A stretch of DNA of 39,497 bases from a virus. Its lineage: Duplodnaviria > Heunggongvirae > Uroviricota > Caudoviricetes. The notes under the pieces were generated by a model, which saw only the letters and a program-made list of their open reading frames with translations, did no database searches and had not been told where the DNA came from. The first letter of the stretch is position 1, and each line of letters begins with the position of its first letter. The stretch lies in IMG/VR virus record IMGVR_UViG_2778261536_000006; one strand, given 5' to 3'. Of this stretch, positions 1-39,121 are shown piece after piece. Made by a program: the position numbers and the translations under genes.

Positions 1-573
1 ATGTTTTGCGAAGAAAAAGTAGCTCAAATGGCTGCATACCTACTTCTTAAGCGAGGTGGGCGCATGGCATATCTGAAATTGATGAAGTTGCTCTATCTGT
101 CTAACCGCCAGTCGATTTTGAAGCATGGCAGGATGATCGGCGAAGATAGCCTTTACTCTATGAAATTTGGACCAGTCATGTCGAATACGCTGAACTTGAT
201 TCGCGGTAAGGCTGAAGGCATTGGTGACTACTGGTACAACTTGATAGAGACGAACGGGCATAATGTATCGTTGCGTTCAGATCCGAGGGAAATGGATGCA
301 GACGAGGTCTTTGATGAATTGAGTCGTGCAGATATCCGGATTTTAGATGAAATCTATTCTCGGTATGGGCATATGAACCGATTTGATCTCGCAAATATGA
401 CGCATTTAGAAAGCGTTTGTCCAGAGTGGCACGATCCTGGCAATTCTCGTAAGCCTATAGACCTGAAAGAAATGCTGATCAGTGAGGGTAAAAGCGAGGA
501 TGAGGCTAATCGCATAATTGGCAAAATGGAAGAATCTCAGAAACTTAAGGAATTTTCTTTGCAATTATCATGA
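1..573 (+). CDS. Panacea-domain (DUF4065, SocA/GepA-like) phage-associated protein, putative antitoxin
   Basis: 190-aa ORF with LKLMKLLYL and GPV motifs that I recognise as Panacea-like; stop overlaps the next ORF start (ATGA). Confidence 0.5.
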   Translation: MFCEEKVAQMAAYLLLKRGGRMAYLKLMKLLYLSNRQSILKHGRMIGEDSLYSMKFGPVMSNTLNLIRGKAEGIGDYWYNLIETNGHNVSLRSDPREMDADEVFDELSRADIRILDEIYSRYGHMNRFDLANMTHLESVCPEWHDPGNSRKPIDLKEMLISEGKSEDEANRIIGKMEESQKLKEFSLQLS

Positions 574-5216: not shown

Positions 5217-5909
5217 TTAATTATGTCTCTTAAGGGTTTGCGACTGACTGATTAAGACCTTTCCAAAGACCATGAATCGGTGTTCGTTTTCGCTAGTAAT
5301 TCCCCATTCACGGTAAATCTGGTTATCAGAAATCACCAGCAGTTTGTCAGGAATCATTTGAAGTCTTTTAACGTATATTTTGTCATCAAAACCAAAGACA
5401 TATATACCATCACCATCAAACTGATTGATGCTGACATCAACGAAGATGAGATCTCCTGGCTCAATGGTTGGACACATACTGTCCCCACGAACGTTGATAA
5501 CTTTGATGTGATTGGCTGGTCGTCCGCCGAACATTGATACAGCATTATCAGTTCTGTATTCGATGGCATGAATCACATCAATGACATCACCGCCCTGGAT
5601 AAGGCCATTTCCCGCACTGGCACTGATATCCAACATTTCAATACGGAACACATCCTTCACCTGCGCAACATCCTCATCATTACTGTTTTTATATACAGTA
5701 TTACTTTTGAGGGCAGAGGTAAAGAGATCAGCAATATCAACACCTAAGCTCTTGGCAATATTACTCAGTGTTTGTTCGGTAAATTGTTTCTGCTTACCCG
5801 TTTCTAAGCGCGAGATGTTCGCCGCATCTACTCCTATTGCTTCAGCGAGATCGGCGATTTTCATGTTCTTCGCTTGGCGAAGTTGTCTGACTCGTTTTCC
5901 TATGTTCAT
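5217..5909 (-). CDS. CI-like phage repressor (HTH-XRE plus S24 LexA-like peptidase domain)
   Basis: 230 aa; N-terminal HTH and C-terminal S24 motifs (GDSM...KRL); divergent from the Cro-like gene. Confidence 0.85.
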   Translation of the reverse strand: MNIGKRVRQLRQAKNMKIADLAEAIGVDAANISRLETGKQKQFTEQTLSNIAKSLGVDIADLFTSALKSNTVYKNSNDEDVAQVKDVFRIEMLDISASAGNGLIQGGDVIDVIHAIEYRTDNAVSMFGGRPANHIKVINVRGDSMCPTIEPGDLIFVDVSINQFDGDGIYVFGFDDKIYVKRLQMIPDKLLVISDNQIYREWGITSENEHRFMVFGKVLISQSQTLKRHN

Positions 5910-13148: not shown

Positions 13149-14201
13149 ATGAAAAATACTGTAAAAATAAACAGTGTTGATTTAATCAACGCTGATTGCC
13201 TGCATTTTATTCAGTCCCTGCCTGATGATTCCATTGACCTGATTGTTACCGATCCGCCTTACTTCAAGGTGAAACCTAACGGTTGGGACAATCAGTGGAA
13301 AGGGGATGAAGATTACCTTAAGTGGCTGGACCACTGTCTGGCCCAGTTCTGGCGGGTGTTGAAACCTGCCGGAAGCCTTTACCTGTTCTGTGGGCATCGC
13401 CTAGCATCTGATATTGAGATCATGATGCGTGAACGTTTCAACGTGCTTAACCATATCATCTGGGCGAAGCCGTCCGGACGTTGGAATGGGTGTAATAAAG
13501 AAAGTCTGCGCGCATATTTTCCTGCCACAGAGCGCGTTCTGTTTGCTGAACATTACCAGGGGCCATATCGCGGCAAAAGTGACGGCTATGCGGCAAAAGA
13601 AAGGGAACTCAAACAGCACATAATGGCACCGCTGATATCGTATTTCAGGGATGCTCGTGCCGAACTGGGTATAACGGCAAAACAAATTGCCGAAGCCACA
13701 GGTAAGAAAAATATGGTTTCCCACTGGTTTGGTGCCAGTCAGTGGCAGTTGCCGAATGAGGCTGACTATCGGAAGTTACAGGCACTGTTTTCCCGTATAG
13801 CGGCAGAGAAGTTTCAGGAACAACAACTGGAACAACCACACCACCAGCTGGTGGCATCTTATGATTCACTGAATCGTAAATATTCTGAATTGCTGGATGA
13901 GTTTAAATCTCTCCGGCGCTATTTCTCCGTATCAGTCTCCGTGCCTTATACCGATGTCTGGATGCATAAACCCGTTCAGTTCTACCCGGGGAAACATCCG
14001 TGTGAGAAACCGGCGGATATGCTCAGGCAAATAATCAATGCCAGTAGTCGACCAGGTGATCTGGTTGCTGATTTTTTTATGGGATCCGGTTCCACAATAA
14101 AAGCAGCAATGGCGCTGGGGCGTCGGGCCTTAGGTGTTGAGCTTGAGTCAGAGCGGTTTAATCAGACAGTGAAAGAGATAAACGAGCTGGTGGGGAAATA
14201 A
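13149..14201 (+). CDS. DNA methyltransferase (N6-adenine/N4-cytosine, beta-class)
   Basis: 350 aa with N-terminal DPPY catalytic motif and C-terminal AdoMet-binding FMGSGST. Confidence 0.8.
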   Translation: MKNTVKINSVDLINADCLHFIQSLPDDSIDLIVTDPPYFKVKPNGWDNQWKGDEDYLKWLDHCLAQFWRVLKPAGSLYLFCGHRLASDIEIMMRERFNVLNHIIWAKPSGRWNGCNKESLRAYFPATERVLFAEHYQGPYRGKSDGYAAKERELKQHIMAPLISYFRDARAELGITAKQIAEATGKKNMVSHWFGASQWQLPNEADYRKLQALFSRIAAEKFQEQQLEQPHHQLVASYDSLNRKYSELLDEFKSLRRYFSVSVSVPYTDVWMHKPVQFYPGKHPCEKPADMLRQIINASSRPGDLVADFFMGSGSTIKAAMALGRRALGVELESERFNQTVKEINELVGK

Positions 14202-23841: not shown

Positions 23842-25321
23842 CACCATTCCGTCGAATACGCTGGTTCCGCTGTTTTATGCGGAAATGGATAACTCGGCGG
23901 CGAATACTGCACAGGACAGCGGAGCATCACTGCTGATTGGTCATGCCAATAACGGTGCAGAGATTGTTGCCAACAGTCTGCTGCTGATGCCGTCGGCAGA
24001 CTATGCACGTCAGATTTGTGGTGCGGGAAGTCAGCTGGCGCGTATGGTCGAGGCTTATCGCCAGACCGACCCGTTTGGTGAGCTGTATGTGATTGCCGTT
24101 CCTGAATCCACGGGCGCGGCGGCAACGGTTACGCTGACGGTGACCGGGGCGGCAACCGAAACCGGCACGGTAAATGTTTATGTGGGACGTACCCGCGTGC
24201 AGGCACCGGTGACCAACGGCGATAACGTCACGACGATTGCCAGCAGTATCCAGGATGCCATCAATGCCGTTCCGGCTCTGCCGTTTACGGCCTCATCTTC
24301 GGCAGGCGTGGTCACGCTGACCGCGCGTCATAAGGGGCTTTGCGGGAATGAAATTCCTGTCAGCCTCAATTACTACGGCTTTGGTGGGGGCGAAGTTCTG
24401 CCAGCGGGCGTACAGATTGCCGTGGCGGCGGGGACCGCCGGAACGGGCGCTCCTGTTCTCACCGGCGCGGTGGCTGCAATGGCGGATGAGCCGTTTGATT
24501 ATATCGGTCTGCCGTTCAACGACACTGCCTCCGTTAACACGCTGGTGACCGAGATGAACGATACCAGCGGTCGCTGGAGCTATGCGCGTCAGCTGTATGG
24601 TCATGTGTATACGGCAAAGATCGGCACGCTGTCAGAACTGGTGACCGCAGGTGATCAGTTTAACCAGCAGCACATTACCCTGGCGGGGTACGAAAAAGAG
24701 ACCCAGACGCCTGCCGACGAGCTGGCGGCAAGCCGTACCGCCCGCGCAGCGGTGTTTATTCGCAACGATCCGGCACGTCCCACGCAGACCGGTGAGCTGG
24801 TGGGTATGCTGCCTGCGCCGAAGGGGAAACGGTTCACGATGACCGAACAACAGACCCTGCTGTCTCATGGCGTGGCAACGGCGTATGTCGAAAGCGGGGT
24901 ACTACGCATTCAGCGTGATGTCACCACGTACAGGAAAAACGCTTATGGGGTTGCGGATAACAGCTACCTCGACAGTGAGACGCTGCATACCAGCGCGTAT
25001 GTACTGCGCAAACTGAAATCCGTCATTACCAGTAAGTACGGGCGTCACAAGCTTGCCAGTGACGGTACCCGCTTTGGTCCCGGTCAGGCGATTGTCACCC
25101 CGGCGGTGATCAAAGGGGAACTGCTGGCAACCTACCGTCAGCTTGAGCGTGCGGGGATCGTGGAAAACTACGAACTGTTTAAGCAGTACCTGGTTGTGGA
25201 GCGTGATGCCAGCGATCCGAACCGCCTGAACACGCTGTTCCCGCCTGACTATGTTAACCAGTTGCGTGTCTTTGCCGTGGTTAACCAGTTCCGTCTTCAG
25301 TATTCAGAGGAGTCTGCATAA
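23825..25321 (+). CDS. Contractile tail sheath protein (Mu L-like)
   Basis: 498 aa, followed by tube, chaperone and tape measure in canonical myovirus order. Confidence 0.85.
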   Translation: MTISFNTIPSNTLVPLFYAEMDNSAANTAQDSGASLLIGHANNGAEIVANSLLLMPSADYARQICGAGSQLARMVEAYRQTDPFGELYVIAVPESTGAAATVTLTVTGAATETGTVNVYVGRTRVQAPVTNGDNVTTIASSIQDAINAVPALPFTASSSAGVVTLTARHKGLCGNEIPVSLNYYGFGGGEVLPAGVQIAVAAGTAGTGAPVLTGAVAAMADEPFDYIGLPFNDTASVNTLVTEMNDTSGRWSYARQLYGHVYTAKIGTLSELVTAGDQFNQQHITLAGYEKETQTPADELAASRTARAAVFIRNDPARPTQTGELVGMLPAPKGKRFTMTEQQTLLSHGVATAYVESGVLRIQRDVTTYRKNAYGVADNSYLDSETLHTSAYVLRKLKSVITSKYGRHKLASDGTRFGPGQAIVTPAVIKGELLATYRQLERAGIVENYELFKQYLVVERDASDPNRLNTLFPPDYVNQLRVFAVVNQFRLQYSEESA

Positions 25322-35848: not shown

Positions 35849-35875
35849 CTTCTCCTGTTTTTACAACAGGAGAAG
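35849..35875 (+). promoter_or_regulatory. Perfect 11-bp stem hairpin overlapping the invertase Shine-Dalgarno
   Basis: CTTCTCCTGTT (35849-35859), loop TTTAC, AACAGGAGAAG (35865-35875); the AGGAG at 35868-35872 lies in the right arm, 8 nt before the ATG. Confidence 0.35.
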
Positions 35876-35880
35876 CACTC

Positions 35881-36444
35881 ATGATTTACGGGTATGTTCG
35901 TGTATCAACAAATCATCAGGATACAGAGTTGCAACGTCTTGCACTTGAGTCAGCTGGCTGTGAGCGAATTTATGAAGAATATGCCAGTGGCAGAACAGCT
36001 AATCGCCCTGTGTTAAAGGAATTAATTACGGTGATGAAAAGTGGAGATGAGTTGATTGTCTGGAAGTTAGATCGGATAGGGAGAAATGTGCTGCATGCGC
36101 TATTGATGTTTCAAAATCTGCACGAAAAAGGTGTTAATTTTCGGAGTATTACAGATGGCGTAGACCTGAAAACAGCAAGTGGTCGCTATAATTTCCGTAA
36201 TATTCTTTCTGCTGCGCAGTATGAATCTGATTTGAATAGCGAGCGAACTTTAGCTGGTTTGGCTATTGCCAGATCCAAAGGCCGGATTGGTGGGCGTAGA
36301 CCGAAGTTTAGCGACGAGCAGTGGCAACAGATGGGAGCGCTCATAGCGGCAGGGAAATCACGGCGTTATGTTGCACGTATCTATAACGTTGGGCTATCAA
36401 CCCTATATAAACGATTTCCTGTTACTGGCATTCAAACGAAATAA
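35881..36444 (+). CDS. Serine DNA invertase (Gin/Pin/Hin/Cin family)
   Basis: 187 aa; N-terminal YGYVRVST with catalytic Ser, resolvase core, C-terminal HTH; adjacent to the invertible fibre segment. Confidence 0.85.
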   Translation: MIYGYVRVSTNHQDTELQRLALESAGCERIYEEYASGRTANRPVLKELITVMKSGDELIVWKLDRIGRNVLHALLMFQNLHEKGVNFRSITDGVDLKTASGRYNFRNILSAAQYESDLNSERTLAGLAIARSKGRIGGRRPKFSDEQWQQMGALIAAGKSRRYVARIYNVGLSTLYKRFPVTGIQTK

Positions 36445-36587
36445 TTTAAAAGCAATTTAAAGAGTTATTTGTCTAATGTTGGAAGCCGCAGCCACGTCGT
36501 ATGCAAGAACGTGCTGCGGCTGGCTGGCGAACTTTCGATAGTGCGAGTATTGAATGATTTCCAGCCGTTACCGATTTTACGTGTTAA

Positions 36588-36836
36588 TTAGTGAACAAAC
36601 CACTCGTCAGCAGATTCCCAGGTATCTTTCAGAGTCTCCTGAACAAAAGTTTTTGCAGAATCCTTATCTGCGGTGCGTGTAACAGAAAGGCCATCGTTGC
36701 TGGTGGCTTTTACGATCACCTCTACATCGTCATAACGTTTACTGATGCGTCGGGTTAATTCTTCCTTTAACGCATCCACAGCACCGGTTGGCATTTTAGT
36801 CATTTTTTCTTTGGCTATGCAGATTTCAATACGCAT
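36588..36836 (-). CDS. DinI-family protein
   Basis: 82 aa starting [11 protein letters not shown] with C-terminal [16 protein letters not shown], closely resembling DinI; two SOS boxes upstream. Confidence 0.75.
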
Positions 36837-36849
36837 AAAAGTCCCTCTA

Positions 36850-36901
36850 TACTGTGTTTGTATACAGTATTATTTTTAACTGTATAGATAAACAGTGTCA
36901 A
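36850..36901 (-). promoter_or_regulatory. Tandem LexA (SOS) boxes overlapping a promoter for the DinI-like gene
   Basis: TACTGTGTTTGTATACAGTA (36850-36869) and AACTGTATAGATAAACAGTG (36878-36897), both CTGT-N8-ACAG; minus-strand TTGACA at 36896-36901 with an A/T-rich -10 about 17 bp downstream. Confidence 0.7.
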
Positions 36902-37995
36902 GAGGCCTTATTTCTGCTCCTTTGGAGCTCTTCAAAACGATTATGTAAAGATTTCGGATACAGTTCGGTATATACCTGCCATAGCACGTTTAATGAACGA
37001 TGCCCTGTAACCTGGGCGACTTCCTCAATACTAAAACCAGCCTCAAATAAGCGACTTGCCCCTTCTCTACGCAAATCATGGTATCGCAGATCTTTAATAC
37101 CTAATTTGCTTCTTACCCTCTGGAATCCCGCAGTAACAGAAGTGCTGTTATATGGAAAAATGAATTCTGATTTTTTGGGTTGTCGTTGGACGATATCCCA
37201 GGCTTCCCCAAGCAAGGCTACTTTCATATGGTTGCCTTCCTTTTTACGTGGATCTTTCCTGTCTCTTACGAGTATGGATTTTTGTTCCTGATCGAGATCC
37301 TCCCATCGTAATCGGCATACTTCACCGATTCGCATACATGACCACACAGAAAATTTGAGGATATCAACGAACGGAATTTTTGAGCATTTATGTGTAGATC
37401 GTTGTTGAAGACCTTCAATGAGCATGTCCAGTTCATCAGATGCCGGTCTACGATTACGACGATTTGATTTACCAATTAAACCAAGTTTAAGTAGATATGG
37501 ACGAGCGGCTTTTGCTGGGTTTGATGTGTAATTAATTCCATATACAGGTTTGGCAGCATCCAGAACACTGCCAAGATAACTAACATCGTGGCTAACTGTA
37601 GCTGGACCTGCACCAGCGTTGTTTCTTAGCCTGCAATGTTCAATTACGTCATTTTCTGTCAGTTCAGATAGTTTGATCGCGGAGATGTCACTATCCATAA
37701 GCAGTTCCAGCACATATCTTTTAGTACGGCCTGCTTTACCTCCGGCATTTGGGTCATTTAAATATTTGTGTAGTAAGTCACGGACTGTAAGTCCGTCAAC
37801 TGCATTTGATGATGGAATGCCATATAGATCTAATTCCATCACTTTCTGTGTGCCCCATGTTTTGGCATGAGCATGTTTAGGGAATGTTTTACTTTCCCTG
37901 TAAGTGATAACACCTTTTTCTTTGATAATCACATTACAGCGATAGCGTGGTGTGCCATCGGATTTTAGTCGTTTCTCTATGTTATAGTACGCCAT
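36898..37995 (-). CDS. Tyrosine integrase (DusA-associated type)
   Basis: 365 aa with C-terminal tyrosine-recombinase motifs; start is 88 bp from the dusA start codon, transcribed divergently. Confidence 0.85.
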   Translation of the reverse strand: MAYYNIEKRLKSDGTPRYRCNVIIKEKGVITYRESKTFPKHAHAKTWGTQKVMELDLYGIPSSNAVDGLTVRDLLHKYLNDPNAGGKAGRTKRYVLELLMDSDISAIKLSELTENDVIEHCRLRNNAGAGPATVSHDVSYLGSVLDAAKPVYGINYTSNPAKAARPYLLKLGLIGKSNRRNRRPASDELDMLIEGLQQRSTHKCSKIPFVDILKFSVWSCMRIGEVCRLRWEDLDQEQKSILVRDRKDPRKKEGNHMKVALLGEAWDIVQRQPKKSEFIFPYNSTSVTAGFQRVRSKLGIKDLRYHDLRREGASRLFEAGFSIEEVAQVTGHRSLNVLWQVYTELYPKSLHNRFEELQRSRNKAS

Positions 37996-38013
37996 TACAC
38001 GACCTCGTTATTT

Positions 38014-38051
38014 CGGGTTCCCATAAAACGTGGGAACCTGTGCGGGAACCT
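38014..38051. promoter_or_regulatory. GGGAACC repeat cluster between integrase and dusA (possible arm-type/regulatory sites)
   Basis: GGGTTCCC (38016-38022, inverted) plus two direct GGGAACC copies (38032-38038, 38044-38050) in the int 5' region / attR zone. Confidence 0.35.
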
Positions 38052-38083
38052 AACGCGAGAAAAATAGCCTGAAATGTTCAAAA

Positions 38084-39121
38084 ATGCACGATAATCATGA
38101 AACACAAAAAATTAATCAAACCAGCGTGATGCCTGAAAAAACTGGTGTTTACTGGAATTCTCGGTTTAGCATTGCTCCTATGCTCGACTGGACGGACAGA
38201 CATTGCCGCTATTTCTTGCGTCTGCTTTCCCGCAATACGCTGCTGTATACCGAAATGGTGACCACAGGGGCGATTATTCACGGTAAAGGTGATTACCTGG
38301 CGTACAGTGAAGAAGAACATCCGGTAGCGTTGCAACTCGGCGGTAGCGATCCGGCGGCGCTGGCGCAGTGTGCGAAGCTGGCAGAAGCGCGCGGATATGA
38401 TGAGATCAACCTGAATGTCGGCTGCCCGTCTGACCGGGTGCAGAACGGCATGTTTGGTGCGTGTCTGATGGGTAATGCGCAGCTGGTTGCCGACTGCGTG
38501 AAAGCGATGCGCGATGTGGTGTCGATTCCGGTGACGGTGAAAACGCGTATTGGCATCGATGACCAGGACAGCTATGAATTTCTCTGCAATTTCATCAACA
38601 CCGTTTCCGGCAAAGGCGAGTGTGAGATGTTCATCATCCACGCACGTAAAGCCTGGCTTTCGGGGTTAAGTCCGAAAGAAAACCGTGAGATCCCGCCGCT
38701 CGATTATCCGCGTGTGTATCAACTGAAGCGTGACTTTCCGCATCTGACAATGTCGATTAACGGTGGTATCAAGTCGCTGGAAGAGGCCAAAGCACACCTG
38801 CAACATATGGATGGCGTGATGGTCGGGCGCGAGGCGTATCAGAATCCGGGTATTCTGGCGGCGGTAGACCGGGAGATCTTTGGTTCCTCGGATATCGATG
38901 CCGATCCGGTGGCGGTAGTGCGCGCCATGTATCCGTACATTGAGCGTGAACTCAGCCAGGGGACGTATCTCGGTCATATTACCCGGCATATGTTGGGCTT
39001 GTTCCAGGGTATTCCTGGCGCGCGGCAGTGGCGGCGTTATTTAAGTGAAAATGCCCATAAAGCGGGTGCAGACATTAATGTGCTGGAACACGCGCTCAAA
39101 CTGGTGGCGGATAAGCGTTAA
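38084..39121 (+). CDS. dusA: tRNA-dihydrouridine synthase A
   Basis: 345 aa, highly recognisable DusA sequence ([16 protein letters not shown]...[10 protein letters not shown]...), followed by pspG as in E. coli. Confidence 0.9.

Follow-up and report, generated by a model that had tools for sequence, protein, structure and literature searches.

[quoted passage not shown] The unit appears to be a self-contained, SOS-controlled moron in which a small DinI-family gene would be preceded by a strong sigma-70 promoter and followed by a structured 3' end. It lies in a window of 39,497 nucleotides (the whole stretch of DNA that was analyzed), where the interval 36588-36901 corresponds exactly to the coding sequence plus promoter.

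The window takes in the right-hand part (~38 kb) of a lambdoid prophage that is inserted in an E. coli chromosome at the 5' end of dusA. Its content includes a CI-like repressor, cro, replication genes, a DNA methyltransferase, lysis genes and terminase, together with head and tail genes, tail fibers with an invertible segment, and a Pin-type invertase; neither attL nor a direct repeat of the dusA junction was found in the window, the left end of the prophage lying outside it. The DinI-like gene (36588..36836, - strand; 82 aa) is located between the Pin-type invertase (35881..36444, + strand) and a DusA-type tyrosine integrase (36898..37995, - strand; Pfam PF00589), which is directly upstream and co-directional, with 61 nt from the integrase stop codon to the ATG of the DinI-like gene; the host gene dusA (38084..39121) lies beyond the integrase. 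A scan revealed no terminator-like site between int and dinI, and no open reading frame of at least 30 aa was found on the - strand between the DinI-like gene and the invertase.

The nearest phage record is Escherichia phage SKA5 (98.5% over 35800-38100), and mEp460, Lys8385Vzw and others share the dinI and int pair at ~97% identity. Of 5426 complete E. coli genomes, 716 contain at least 80% of the region 36400-38100; some part of the module is matched in 5245 of the same 5426, at a median of 2 and a maximum of 11 places per genome, a count that takes in matches to the 3' element and to int. The pair recurs in Rosenbergiella (locus L101), where a 70%-identical Int is followed by a 58%-identical DinI-like gene at a position that apparently adjoins dusA (antisense-frame match to the dusA 5' end); thus the linkage of int to dinI is old. 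Elsewhere the neighbors of the dinI module are int, tail-fiber assembly genes, hicAB and others, and this variability indicates moron-like behavior. Consistent with such behavior the module has its own (predicted) promoter and its own 3' hairpin, recurs between different neighbors, and has its downstream boundary after the second of two hairpins.

The initial annotation had placed a prophage DinI homologue between the invertase and the integrase; the coordinates given above agree with this placement, and the homology is confirmed by matches to Pfam DinI (PF06183; E 1.1e-19; 70.9 bits vs a cut-off of 24.2; profile positions 1-63 of 63) and to PHROG 189, 'RecA filament binding protein DinI'. The protein also aligns over its full length with E. 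coli DinI (PDB 1GHH/7YWA; E 3.7e-13). Its score against the NCBIfam DinI equivalog NF007893, 73 bits, is below the cut-off of 111, and the 82-aa protein is therefore a DinI paralogue rather than DinI itself, as is reflected in its PGAP label, 'DinI-like family protein'; functional equivalence with DinI is, on this sequence evidence, not guaranteed. Since the 151-position PHROG 189 profile is covered only over positions 71-149, the protein lacks a Tum-type N-terminal half.

An AF2 model of the protein (pLDDT 74.8) has the DinI fold, taken as an alpha/beta structure with a three-stranded sheet, two helices and a long acidic C-terminal helix: strands span residues 2-8, 39-45 and 50-55, and helices span 19-34 and 58-81. 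The best Foldseek matches of the model are 1GHH and 7YWA (TM 0.75, probability 1.00). In the cryo-EM structure of the RecA-DinI complex the E. coli DinI residues L13, L21, W71, W77 and F78 form a pocket for RecA F203, and E24, E69 and D76 form an acidic patch toward RecA (PMC9926225). The equivalents in the window protein are M15, L23, W73, W79 and F80 for the pocket and E26, D71 and E78 for the patch, so that all eight contact residues are kept, five identically and three conservatively; L23, E26, W73, W79 and F80 are invariant among 13 aligned family members.

Upstream of the coding sequence, on the - strand, a candidate promoter of the form TTGACA-18 nt-AAAAAT was found by consensus scan, with 10 of 12 consensus matches. 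The -35 hexamer TTGACA (36896..36901) includes the integrase stop codon TGA (36898-36900), and the -10 hexamer is AAAAAT (36872..36877). The spacer between them is filled by a distal LexA box, AACTGTATAGATAAACAGTG (36878..36897, core 36880-36895). A proximal LexA box, TACTGTGTTTGTATACAGTA (36850..36869, core 36852-36867), begins 4 nt past the -10 hexamer and lies over the expected transcription start; the two cores are 28 bp apart. A Shine-Dalgarno sequence, GAGGG (36843..36847, - strand), was read from the sequence 6 nt before the ATG and is conserved in relatives. Read along the minus strand, the region thus consists of TTGACA (36901..36896), CTGTTTATCTATACAG, T, AAAAAT (36877..36872) and AATA, and continues after AATA with CTGTATACAAACACAG, TATA, GAGGG, ACTTTT and ATG. 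When box strength is scored as matches to the 20-mer consensus TACTGTATATATATACAGTA, the proximal box has 17/20 and the distal box 16/20, and both CTGT-N8-ACAG cores are exact. The claim that two LexA boxes overlap the promoter is therefore upheld, one core (36880-36895) falling in the spacer and the other (36852-36867) in the start region, as is the claim that they abut the 3' end of the integrase gene, whose stop codon (36900..36898) is inside the -35 hexamer. The predicted promoter itself rests on position and conservation, the scan alone not being significant (3 promoter-like sites by simple scan in the dinI region vs 5.9 expected, i.e., no enrichment). With respect to membership in the LexA regulon, the sequence contains a near-consensus operator that overlaps the predicted core promoter and is conserved in orthologous promoters.

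The double operator is strongly retained. Both cores are kept in all 56 close IMG/VR relatives that have upstream sequence. A set of 54 ungapped upstream sequences, 18 of them distinct, was drawn from IMG/VR relatives and four genome loci; between positions -66 and -1 of this set, variation is confined to 16 of the 50 bases outside the cores, all 16 core bases being constant (Fisher one-sided p = 0.006). Across the 19 best-matching loci, taken from one genome per species and 56-99% identical to the window protein (L083-L101), two boxes are present in 12, one box in 7 and zero boxes in none; where there are two, they lie at about -59 and -32. The two-box layout extends to 56-72% identical homologues of other Enterobacterales, in a group that takes in Pantoea, Trabulsiella, Mixta and Erwinia, and the position of the distal box is occupied in homologues from these four genera and from Rosenbergiella, whose promoter has the distal box only (TTGATA, LexA box, TACTAT). 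TTGACA is kept in diverged homologues, and similarity across differing upstream contexts starts at the -35 hexamer. Homologues of 41-51% identity, which include the chromosomal dinI type, mostly have one box near -37, and a few, e.g., Yersinia loci, have none; because these lower-identity homologues are mostly single-box, the double operator is regarded as a trait of the phage-borne subfamily.

Downstream of the coding sequence, the dinI transcript would end in a structured element (36484..36566, - strand; fold z-score -3.5) that consists of hairpin 1 (36566..36522, - strand; loop AUCAUUCAAUACUCGCACUAUCG) and a terminator-like hairpin 2 (36521..36484, - strand), which in the window copy has no U-run. 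In 28 of 82 other copies at least 5 U occur in the 8 nt following hairpin 2. The element is better conserved than the coding sequence in two loci (L087 and L088), and its loop is identical where the DinI proteins are 70-72% identical; per-sequence folding of 95 distinct copies, with tabulation of the stems, shows compensatory stem changes. An exact 21-mer of the element is present in at least 120 IMG/VR contigs. A sample of 80 copies contains 29 behind a DinI-like gene and 51 behind other genes, and unannotated copies were observed in the b region of lambda (24160-24256, between ea47 and orf-401), HK97 and phi80; no copy was found at the right end of K-12 Rac, where one was looked for. Its occurrence behind many unrelated genes and in lambda, HK97 and phi80 suggests that the element is a general cassette of lambdoid morons that provides a 3' end or terminator.

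An Rfam search with the element returned no family at E <= 1 apart from a weak antisense match of hairpin 2 to CssrB. Identification of the hairpin as this Shigella sRNA can be ruled out, as the match involves the last 37 of 180 model positions, scores 23.5 bits vs a gathering threshold of 76, and lies on the opposite strand; one locus (L086) has a full CssrB copy elsewhere, the part shared with the 3' element being only a terminator-type hairpin. A dinI-specific untranslated region like that of DinR is ruled out as well by the 51 of 80 copies behind other genes and the copies in lambda, HK97 and phi80. Searches of literature full text for the sequence of the element gave no matches.

The repressor of the prophage (5217..5909, - strand) has a helix-turn-helix domain and an S24 peptidase domain, matches CI-like repressors and UmuD-like S24 proteins in NCBIfam and PHROG, and is 98.6% identical to the phage SfII cI region. 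Its translation contains the A-G, GDSM and VKRL motifs, and it is presumed, from these sequence features, to be a substrate of RecA*-dependent autocleavage. As an HTH-S24 protein with autocleavage motifs, it is a molecule with which a phage DinI could compete.

A further LexA box, TACTGTTTTTATATACAGTA (5681-5700; 18/20), was observed within the repressor gene, in a variable linker at codons 71-76. Diverged repressors for comparison were drawn from a phage collection, the relatives search with repressor alignment giving near-identical copies only. In order of falling protein identity, the repressors with a box at the same codon are those of ST64B (sb38, 82%), a Klebsiella phage (70%), phage Eeyore (67%; a CCAG variant) and Cronobacter phage ENT47670 (50%); the box is absent from P22-type and HK022 repressors. 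The peptides encoded over the box are NTVYKNS, NTVCKHS, TTVHINS, TTVCKSS and DTVDTYS, in surroundings that are otherwise unalignable. Retention of the box at the same codons amid unalignable peptide points to selection acting on the DNA motif in the repressor gene. Inspection by eye for an internal or antisense promoter at this box revealed nothing convincing on the + strand and on the sense strand only a weak TTTACC-17-TACTGT; no published report of a LexA box in the repressor gene was found in a literature search.

The mechanism proposed for the dinI module is as follows. In an undamaged lysogen the promoter would be shut by two LexA dimers, one in the -35/-10 spacer and one over the start, a mode of repression deduced from the sequence and its conservation. 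Upon DNA damage, RecA* filaments would form, LexA would cleave itself and the promoter would open. The strength of LexA operators sets the activation threshold and the time of peak expression (PMC5999292), and two near-consensus operators, neither of which may stay occupied if the promoter is to fire, should for this reason keep leak low and make the switch-on higher or later; by extension from these operator-strength studies, the damage signal required for expression is probably stronger or longer than at single-operator SOS promoters. The 82-aa product would then bind RecA* through the residues with which DinI holds the L2 loop and the basic patch of the groove in RecA. Once in the groove it would stabilize the filament and compete with UmuD and with the prophage's own CI-type repressor, and with LexA at high dose only, the net effect being that RecA*-dependent cleavage late in SOS would be damped or delayed.

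Such damping or delay of repressor and UmuD cleavage is the most likely outcome, with binding, sign and size all presumptive. [quoted passage not shown] The suggestion in the initial annotation that an SOS-induced phage DinI could tune repressor autocleavage and induction kinetics is, at the level of sequence, compatible with the evidence. In the only published test, non-polar deletions of dinI in Gifsy-1 and Gifsy-3, whose repressors are uncleaved, did not significantly change induction (PMC3121763).

Four other readings were weighed against the proposed one. That the pair of CTGT-N8-ACAG sites arose by chance in AT-rich intergenic DNA, leaving the gene constitutive or otherwise regulated, could draw on the AT-rich, promoter-like interior of a LexA box and on the promoter scan, which by itself is not significant. 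However, the whole window contains 4 such sites, compared with 0.44 expected and a maximum of 2 in 100 shuffles, so that no shuffle gave 4; two of the sites, with a 28-bp spacing, fall precisely on a core promoter that belongs to a DinI-family gene, their cores are invariant amid varying neighbors, and the arrangement is kept in distant homologues, all of which makes coincidence extremely improbable. A role for the LexA-controlled transcript partly as RNA, with the 3' element released or acting in cis by analogy with Hfq-dependent DinR, could draw on the conservation of the element, which exceeds that of the coding sequence when E. coli is compared with the loci whose proteins are 70-72% identical, and on its two hairpins, which show compensatory changes among the 95 variants; a precedent is DinR, an sRNA that in Klebsiella is processed from the 3' part of the dinI mRNA (PMC10907235). 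This idea is difficult to reconcile with the 51 of 80 sampled copies that follow unrelated genes and those in lambda, HK97 and phi80, with the lack of an Rfam family, and with the window copy having no U-run after hairpin 2, and it is judged quite improbable. The same low likelihood applies, by the same analogy, to its extension, in which an ~85-nt two-hairpin element would be a trans- or cis-acting RNA set free on DNA damage and the prophage family would thus read LexA at several points; if true, LexA would be read directly, through the element and through the operator in the repressor gene, beside the reading of RecA* through CI cleavage.

The remaining two readings concern the protein. It may be the leftover of an SOS antirepressor module, of which nothing but the DinI half and the LexA promoter is left, and have no role in induction. 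In Gifsy and in 186/PSP3/Fels-2 the DinI-like part does travel with a LexA-controlled antirepressor, the partial match to PHROG 189 (71-149/151) means that the family includes longer Tum-like members, and both the dinI-antirepressor linkage and the absence of a phenotype in dinI deletions are documented (PMC3121763). Yet no open reading frame of at least 30 aa follows dinI on the - strand before the invertase, the promoter, coding sequence and 3' element form a discrete unit beside different neighbors, and the coding sequence and RecA-contact residues are kept across genera, which argues for selection on the protein itself; moreover, the prophage repressor has S24 autocleavage motifs and needs no antirepressor. 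A relic of this kind is unlikely. Somewhat less so, if still doubtful, is a lysogenic-conversion gene that serves the host, extra DinI damping SOS, UmuD processing and mutagenesis or aiding survival of DNA-damaging drugs, regardless of whether this prophage is induced. Near-identical copies number dozens to hundreds, and parts of the module are present in 5245/5426 E. coli genomes; a prophage DinI-like gene was among the genes associated with the emergence of quinolone-resistance mutations in a comparative study (PMC10575684), and UmuD cleavage is inhibited by high DinI (PMC6590174). Against this, the evidence is one of association, and the genome count also takes in hits to int and the 3' element. 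Benefit to the host is compatible with an effect on induction, because the protein would act in trans on all RecA* substrates, and the LexA-repressed moron that modulates RecA* coprotease reactions remains the preferred reading.

The window gene offers a clean, well-delimited example for testing the action of phage DinI paralogues. The questions at issue are whether more damage is needed for induction when a phage DinI is present, and whether such a protein cross-protects co-resident prophages and limits SOS mutagenesis. For these questions this prophage is a better system than the Gifsy phages that were tested, because its repressor is of the cleavable type. The dinI module is also present in many Stx phages, and a measurable effect would for that reason bear on antibiotic-triggered induction and Shiga-toxin release.

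Comparison with known systems begins with E. coli chromosomal DinI (1GHH; RecA filament complex 7YWA), which resembles the window protein in fold and length, with ~39-49% identity and an almost identical C-terminal helix, TWESAD(D/E)WF. LexA control, predicted for the window gene, is common to both genes; however, the window gene is prophage-borne and has two LexA boxes, whereas the sampled chromosomal-type dinI homologues have one, near -37. In Klebsiella, the LexA-controlled dinI transcript has a functional 3' part, DinR (PMC10907235), and a conserved structured element likewise lies at the 3' end of the window transcript, but DinR is specific to the 3' UTR of chromosomal Klebsiella dinI and pairs with ftsZ, while the window element is common to many non-dinI genes and to lambda.

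Among phages, the dinI homologues of Gifsy-1, -2 and -3 lie behind a LexA box and are LexA-dependent and induced by mitomycin C (PMC3121763, PMC8072944), and they are included in the Salmonella SOS gene list (PMC8072944, PMC3121763). Like the window gene they are phage-borne and directly follow a LexA box and promoter; the Gifsy genes are also inducible by nalidixic acid. Unlike the window gene, which is monocistronic, Gifsy dinI is the first gene of a dinI-gfoA/gftA-irsA operon, the second gene of which is an antirepressor that triggers induction; one LexA box is listed for Gifsy and its repressors are not cleaved, as opposed to the two boxes and predicted cleavable-type S24 repressor of the window. 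Tum of coliphage 186 is LexA-repressed and has a DinI-like C-terminal half (PMC3121763), which is its likeness to the window protein; it is, however, a protein of 146 aa whose antirepressor activity is N-terminal, whereas the window protein is the DinI half only and has no adjacent partner open reading frame. In PSP3 and Fels-2 the Tum-type functions are present as split genes. A Tum- or Gifsy-type antirepressor operon was considered for the window and is ruled out by the lack of an N-terminal extension and of a downstream open reading frame and by the cleavable-type repressor.

The closest precedents are phi80 dinL and mEp460_021, which represent the module found in the window and share its map position, behind the tail-fiber/invertase genes. 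The mEp460 sequence is 97.3% identical over dinI plus int, and a promoter is annotated at mEp460_021; phi80 dinL has one predicted LexA site annotated and, unlike the window gene, has pin and int on the opposite side. Given these precedents and that of Gifsy, the window gene adds one more member to a known kind; its SOS-controlled dinI arrangement, though real, is common and has already been annotated in related phages. Two LexA boxes at the dinI promoter are annotated in neither the phi80 nor the mEp460 record, and the explicit double operator adds a minor descriptive detail to what those records contain.

In two Rosenbergiella loci (L098, 769-2246, and L101, 757-2246) a DusA-type integrase is followed directly by a DinI-like gene; relative to the window proteins the integrase is 70% identical and the DinI-like protein 56-58% identical, and the promoter of the dinI-like gene carries a predicted LexA box in the -35/-10 spacer, that is, the distal box only. 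This direct succession of integrase and DinI-like gene argues that, as judged from sequence comparison, their linkage at dusA is older than the split between the Escherichia and Erwiniaceae forms of these elements.

Other loci and proteins recovered with DinI-like homologues have features of their own. At L093, L094 and L097 (Mixta, Erwinia) a hicA/hicB-like toxin-antitoxin pair, identified by reading its translations alone (MDSRNAIAMIEADGWYLVRVKGSHHQFKHP... then MLYPVAIDKGDSSFGVRVPDIPGCFSGG...), lies on the same strand about 100 nt 3' of the dinI-like gene. Three 'DinI-like' proteins of 108-112 aa (P0001-P0003) are just 70-75% identical and yet, at 198-208 bits, outscore identical-length full matches; part of their sequence may be duplicated internally, or they may be extended. 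Four dinI-like loci of enterobacterial type (L087, L090, L091 and L126) occur in assemblies that bear the labels Chryseobacterium, Saccharibacteria MAG, Wohlfahrtiimonas MAG and Vagococcus, probably through contamination or mis-binning of these records.

Predicted LexA boxes in the window are not confined to the dinI promoter. A near-consensus box, TACTGTTTTTATATACAGTA (18/20), is found at 5681-5700 within the CI-like repressor gene (5217..5909, - strand), where it corresponds to codons 71-76 in the variable linker. A box is present at the same codon in the repressors of ST64B (82% amino acid identity), Klebsiella phage ST147-VIM1phi7.2 (70%) and Cronobacter phage ENT47670 (50%), and as a CCAG variant in that of phage Eeyore (67%); BTP1/P22-type and HK022 repressors have none. 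Since the box keeps its codon position despite a surrounding peptide that is unalignable among the box-bearing repressors, the comparison suggests that the DNA motif itself is under selection. The fourth LexA-like box of the window, TACTGTAAAAATAAACAGTG (16/20; 13157-13176), occupies codons 3-9 of a DNA methyltransferase gene (13149..14201, + strand); its local sequence is identical in an Stx2c phage (86% identical overall), and its conservation is therefore uninformative.

The window starts inside the prophage, and the left attachment site lies beyond it. After the first ORF (1..573, + strand), named a Panacea-domain protein by PGAP in identical genomes, come two small ORFs on the same strand, a strong hairpin/T-run at about 1215-1240, and then a PrtN-family gene on the - strand that is possibly excisionase-like. 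Upstream of the Pin-type invertase there is an apparent invertible tail-fibre segment (34430-35830), in which a tail-fibre assembly gene (34430..35023, + strand) faces an alternative assembly gene (34995..35435, - strand) accompanied by an alternative fibre C-terminus (35457..35804, - strand).

The 3' side of dinI is occupied by a conserved two-hairpin element (36484-36566, - strand) that matches no Rfam family. At least 120 IMG/VR contigs contain its loop 21-mer, CATTCAATACTCGCACTATCG; compensatory stem changes are seen among 95 distinct copies, most copies of the element lying behind genes other than dinI. The reverse complement of hairpin 2, the dinI-distal stem (36481-36518, + strand), matches the final 37 positions of CssrB, an Rfam sRNA, at 23.5 bits, compared with a gathering score of 76; E. 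coli ECMA0423 has this sRNA in full (230 bits; L086, 3368-3547), 1.1 kb from another dinI-like gene. Hairpin 2 has the appearance of a bidirectional terminator that recurs in prophage regions. The two-hairpin element is also carried, unannotated, by lambda (J02459, 24160-24256, between ea47 and orf-401), and likewise by HK97 and phi80.
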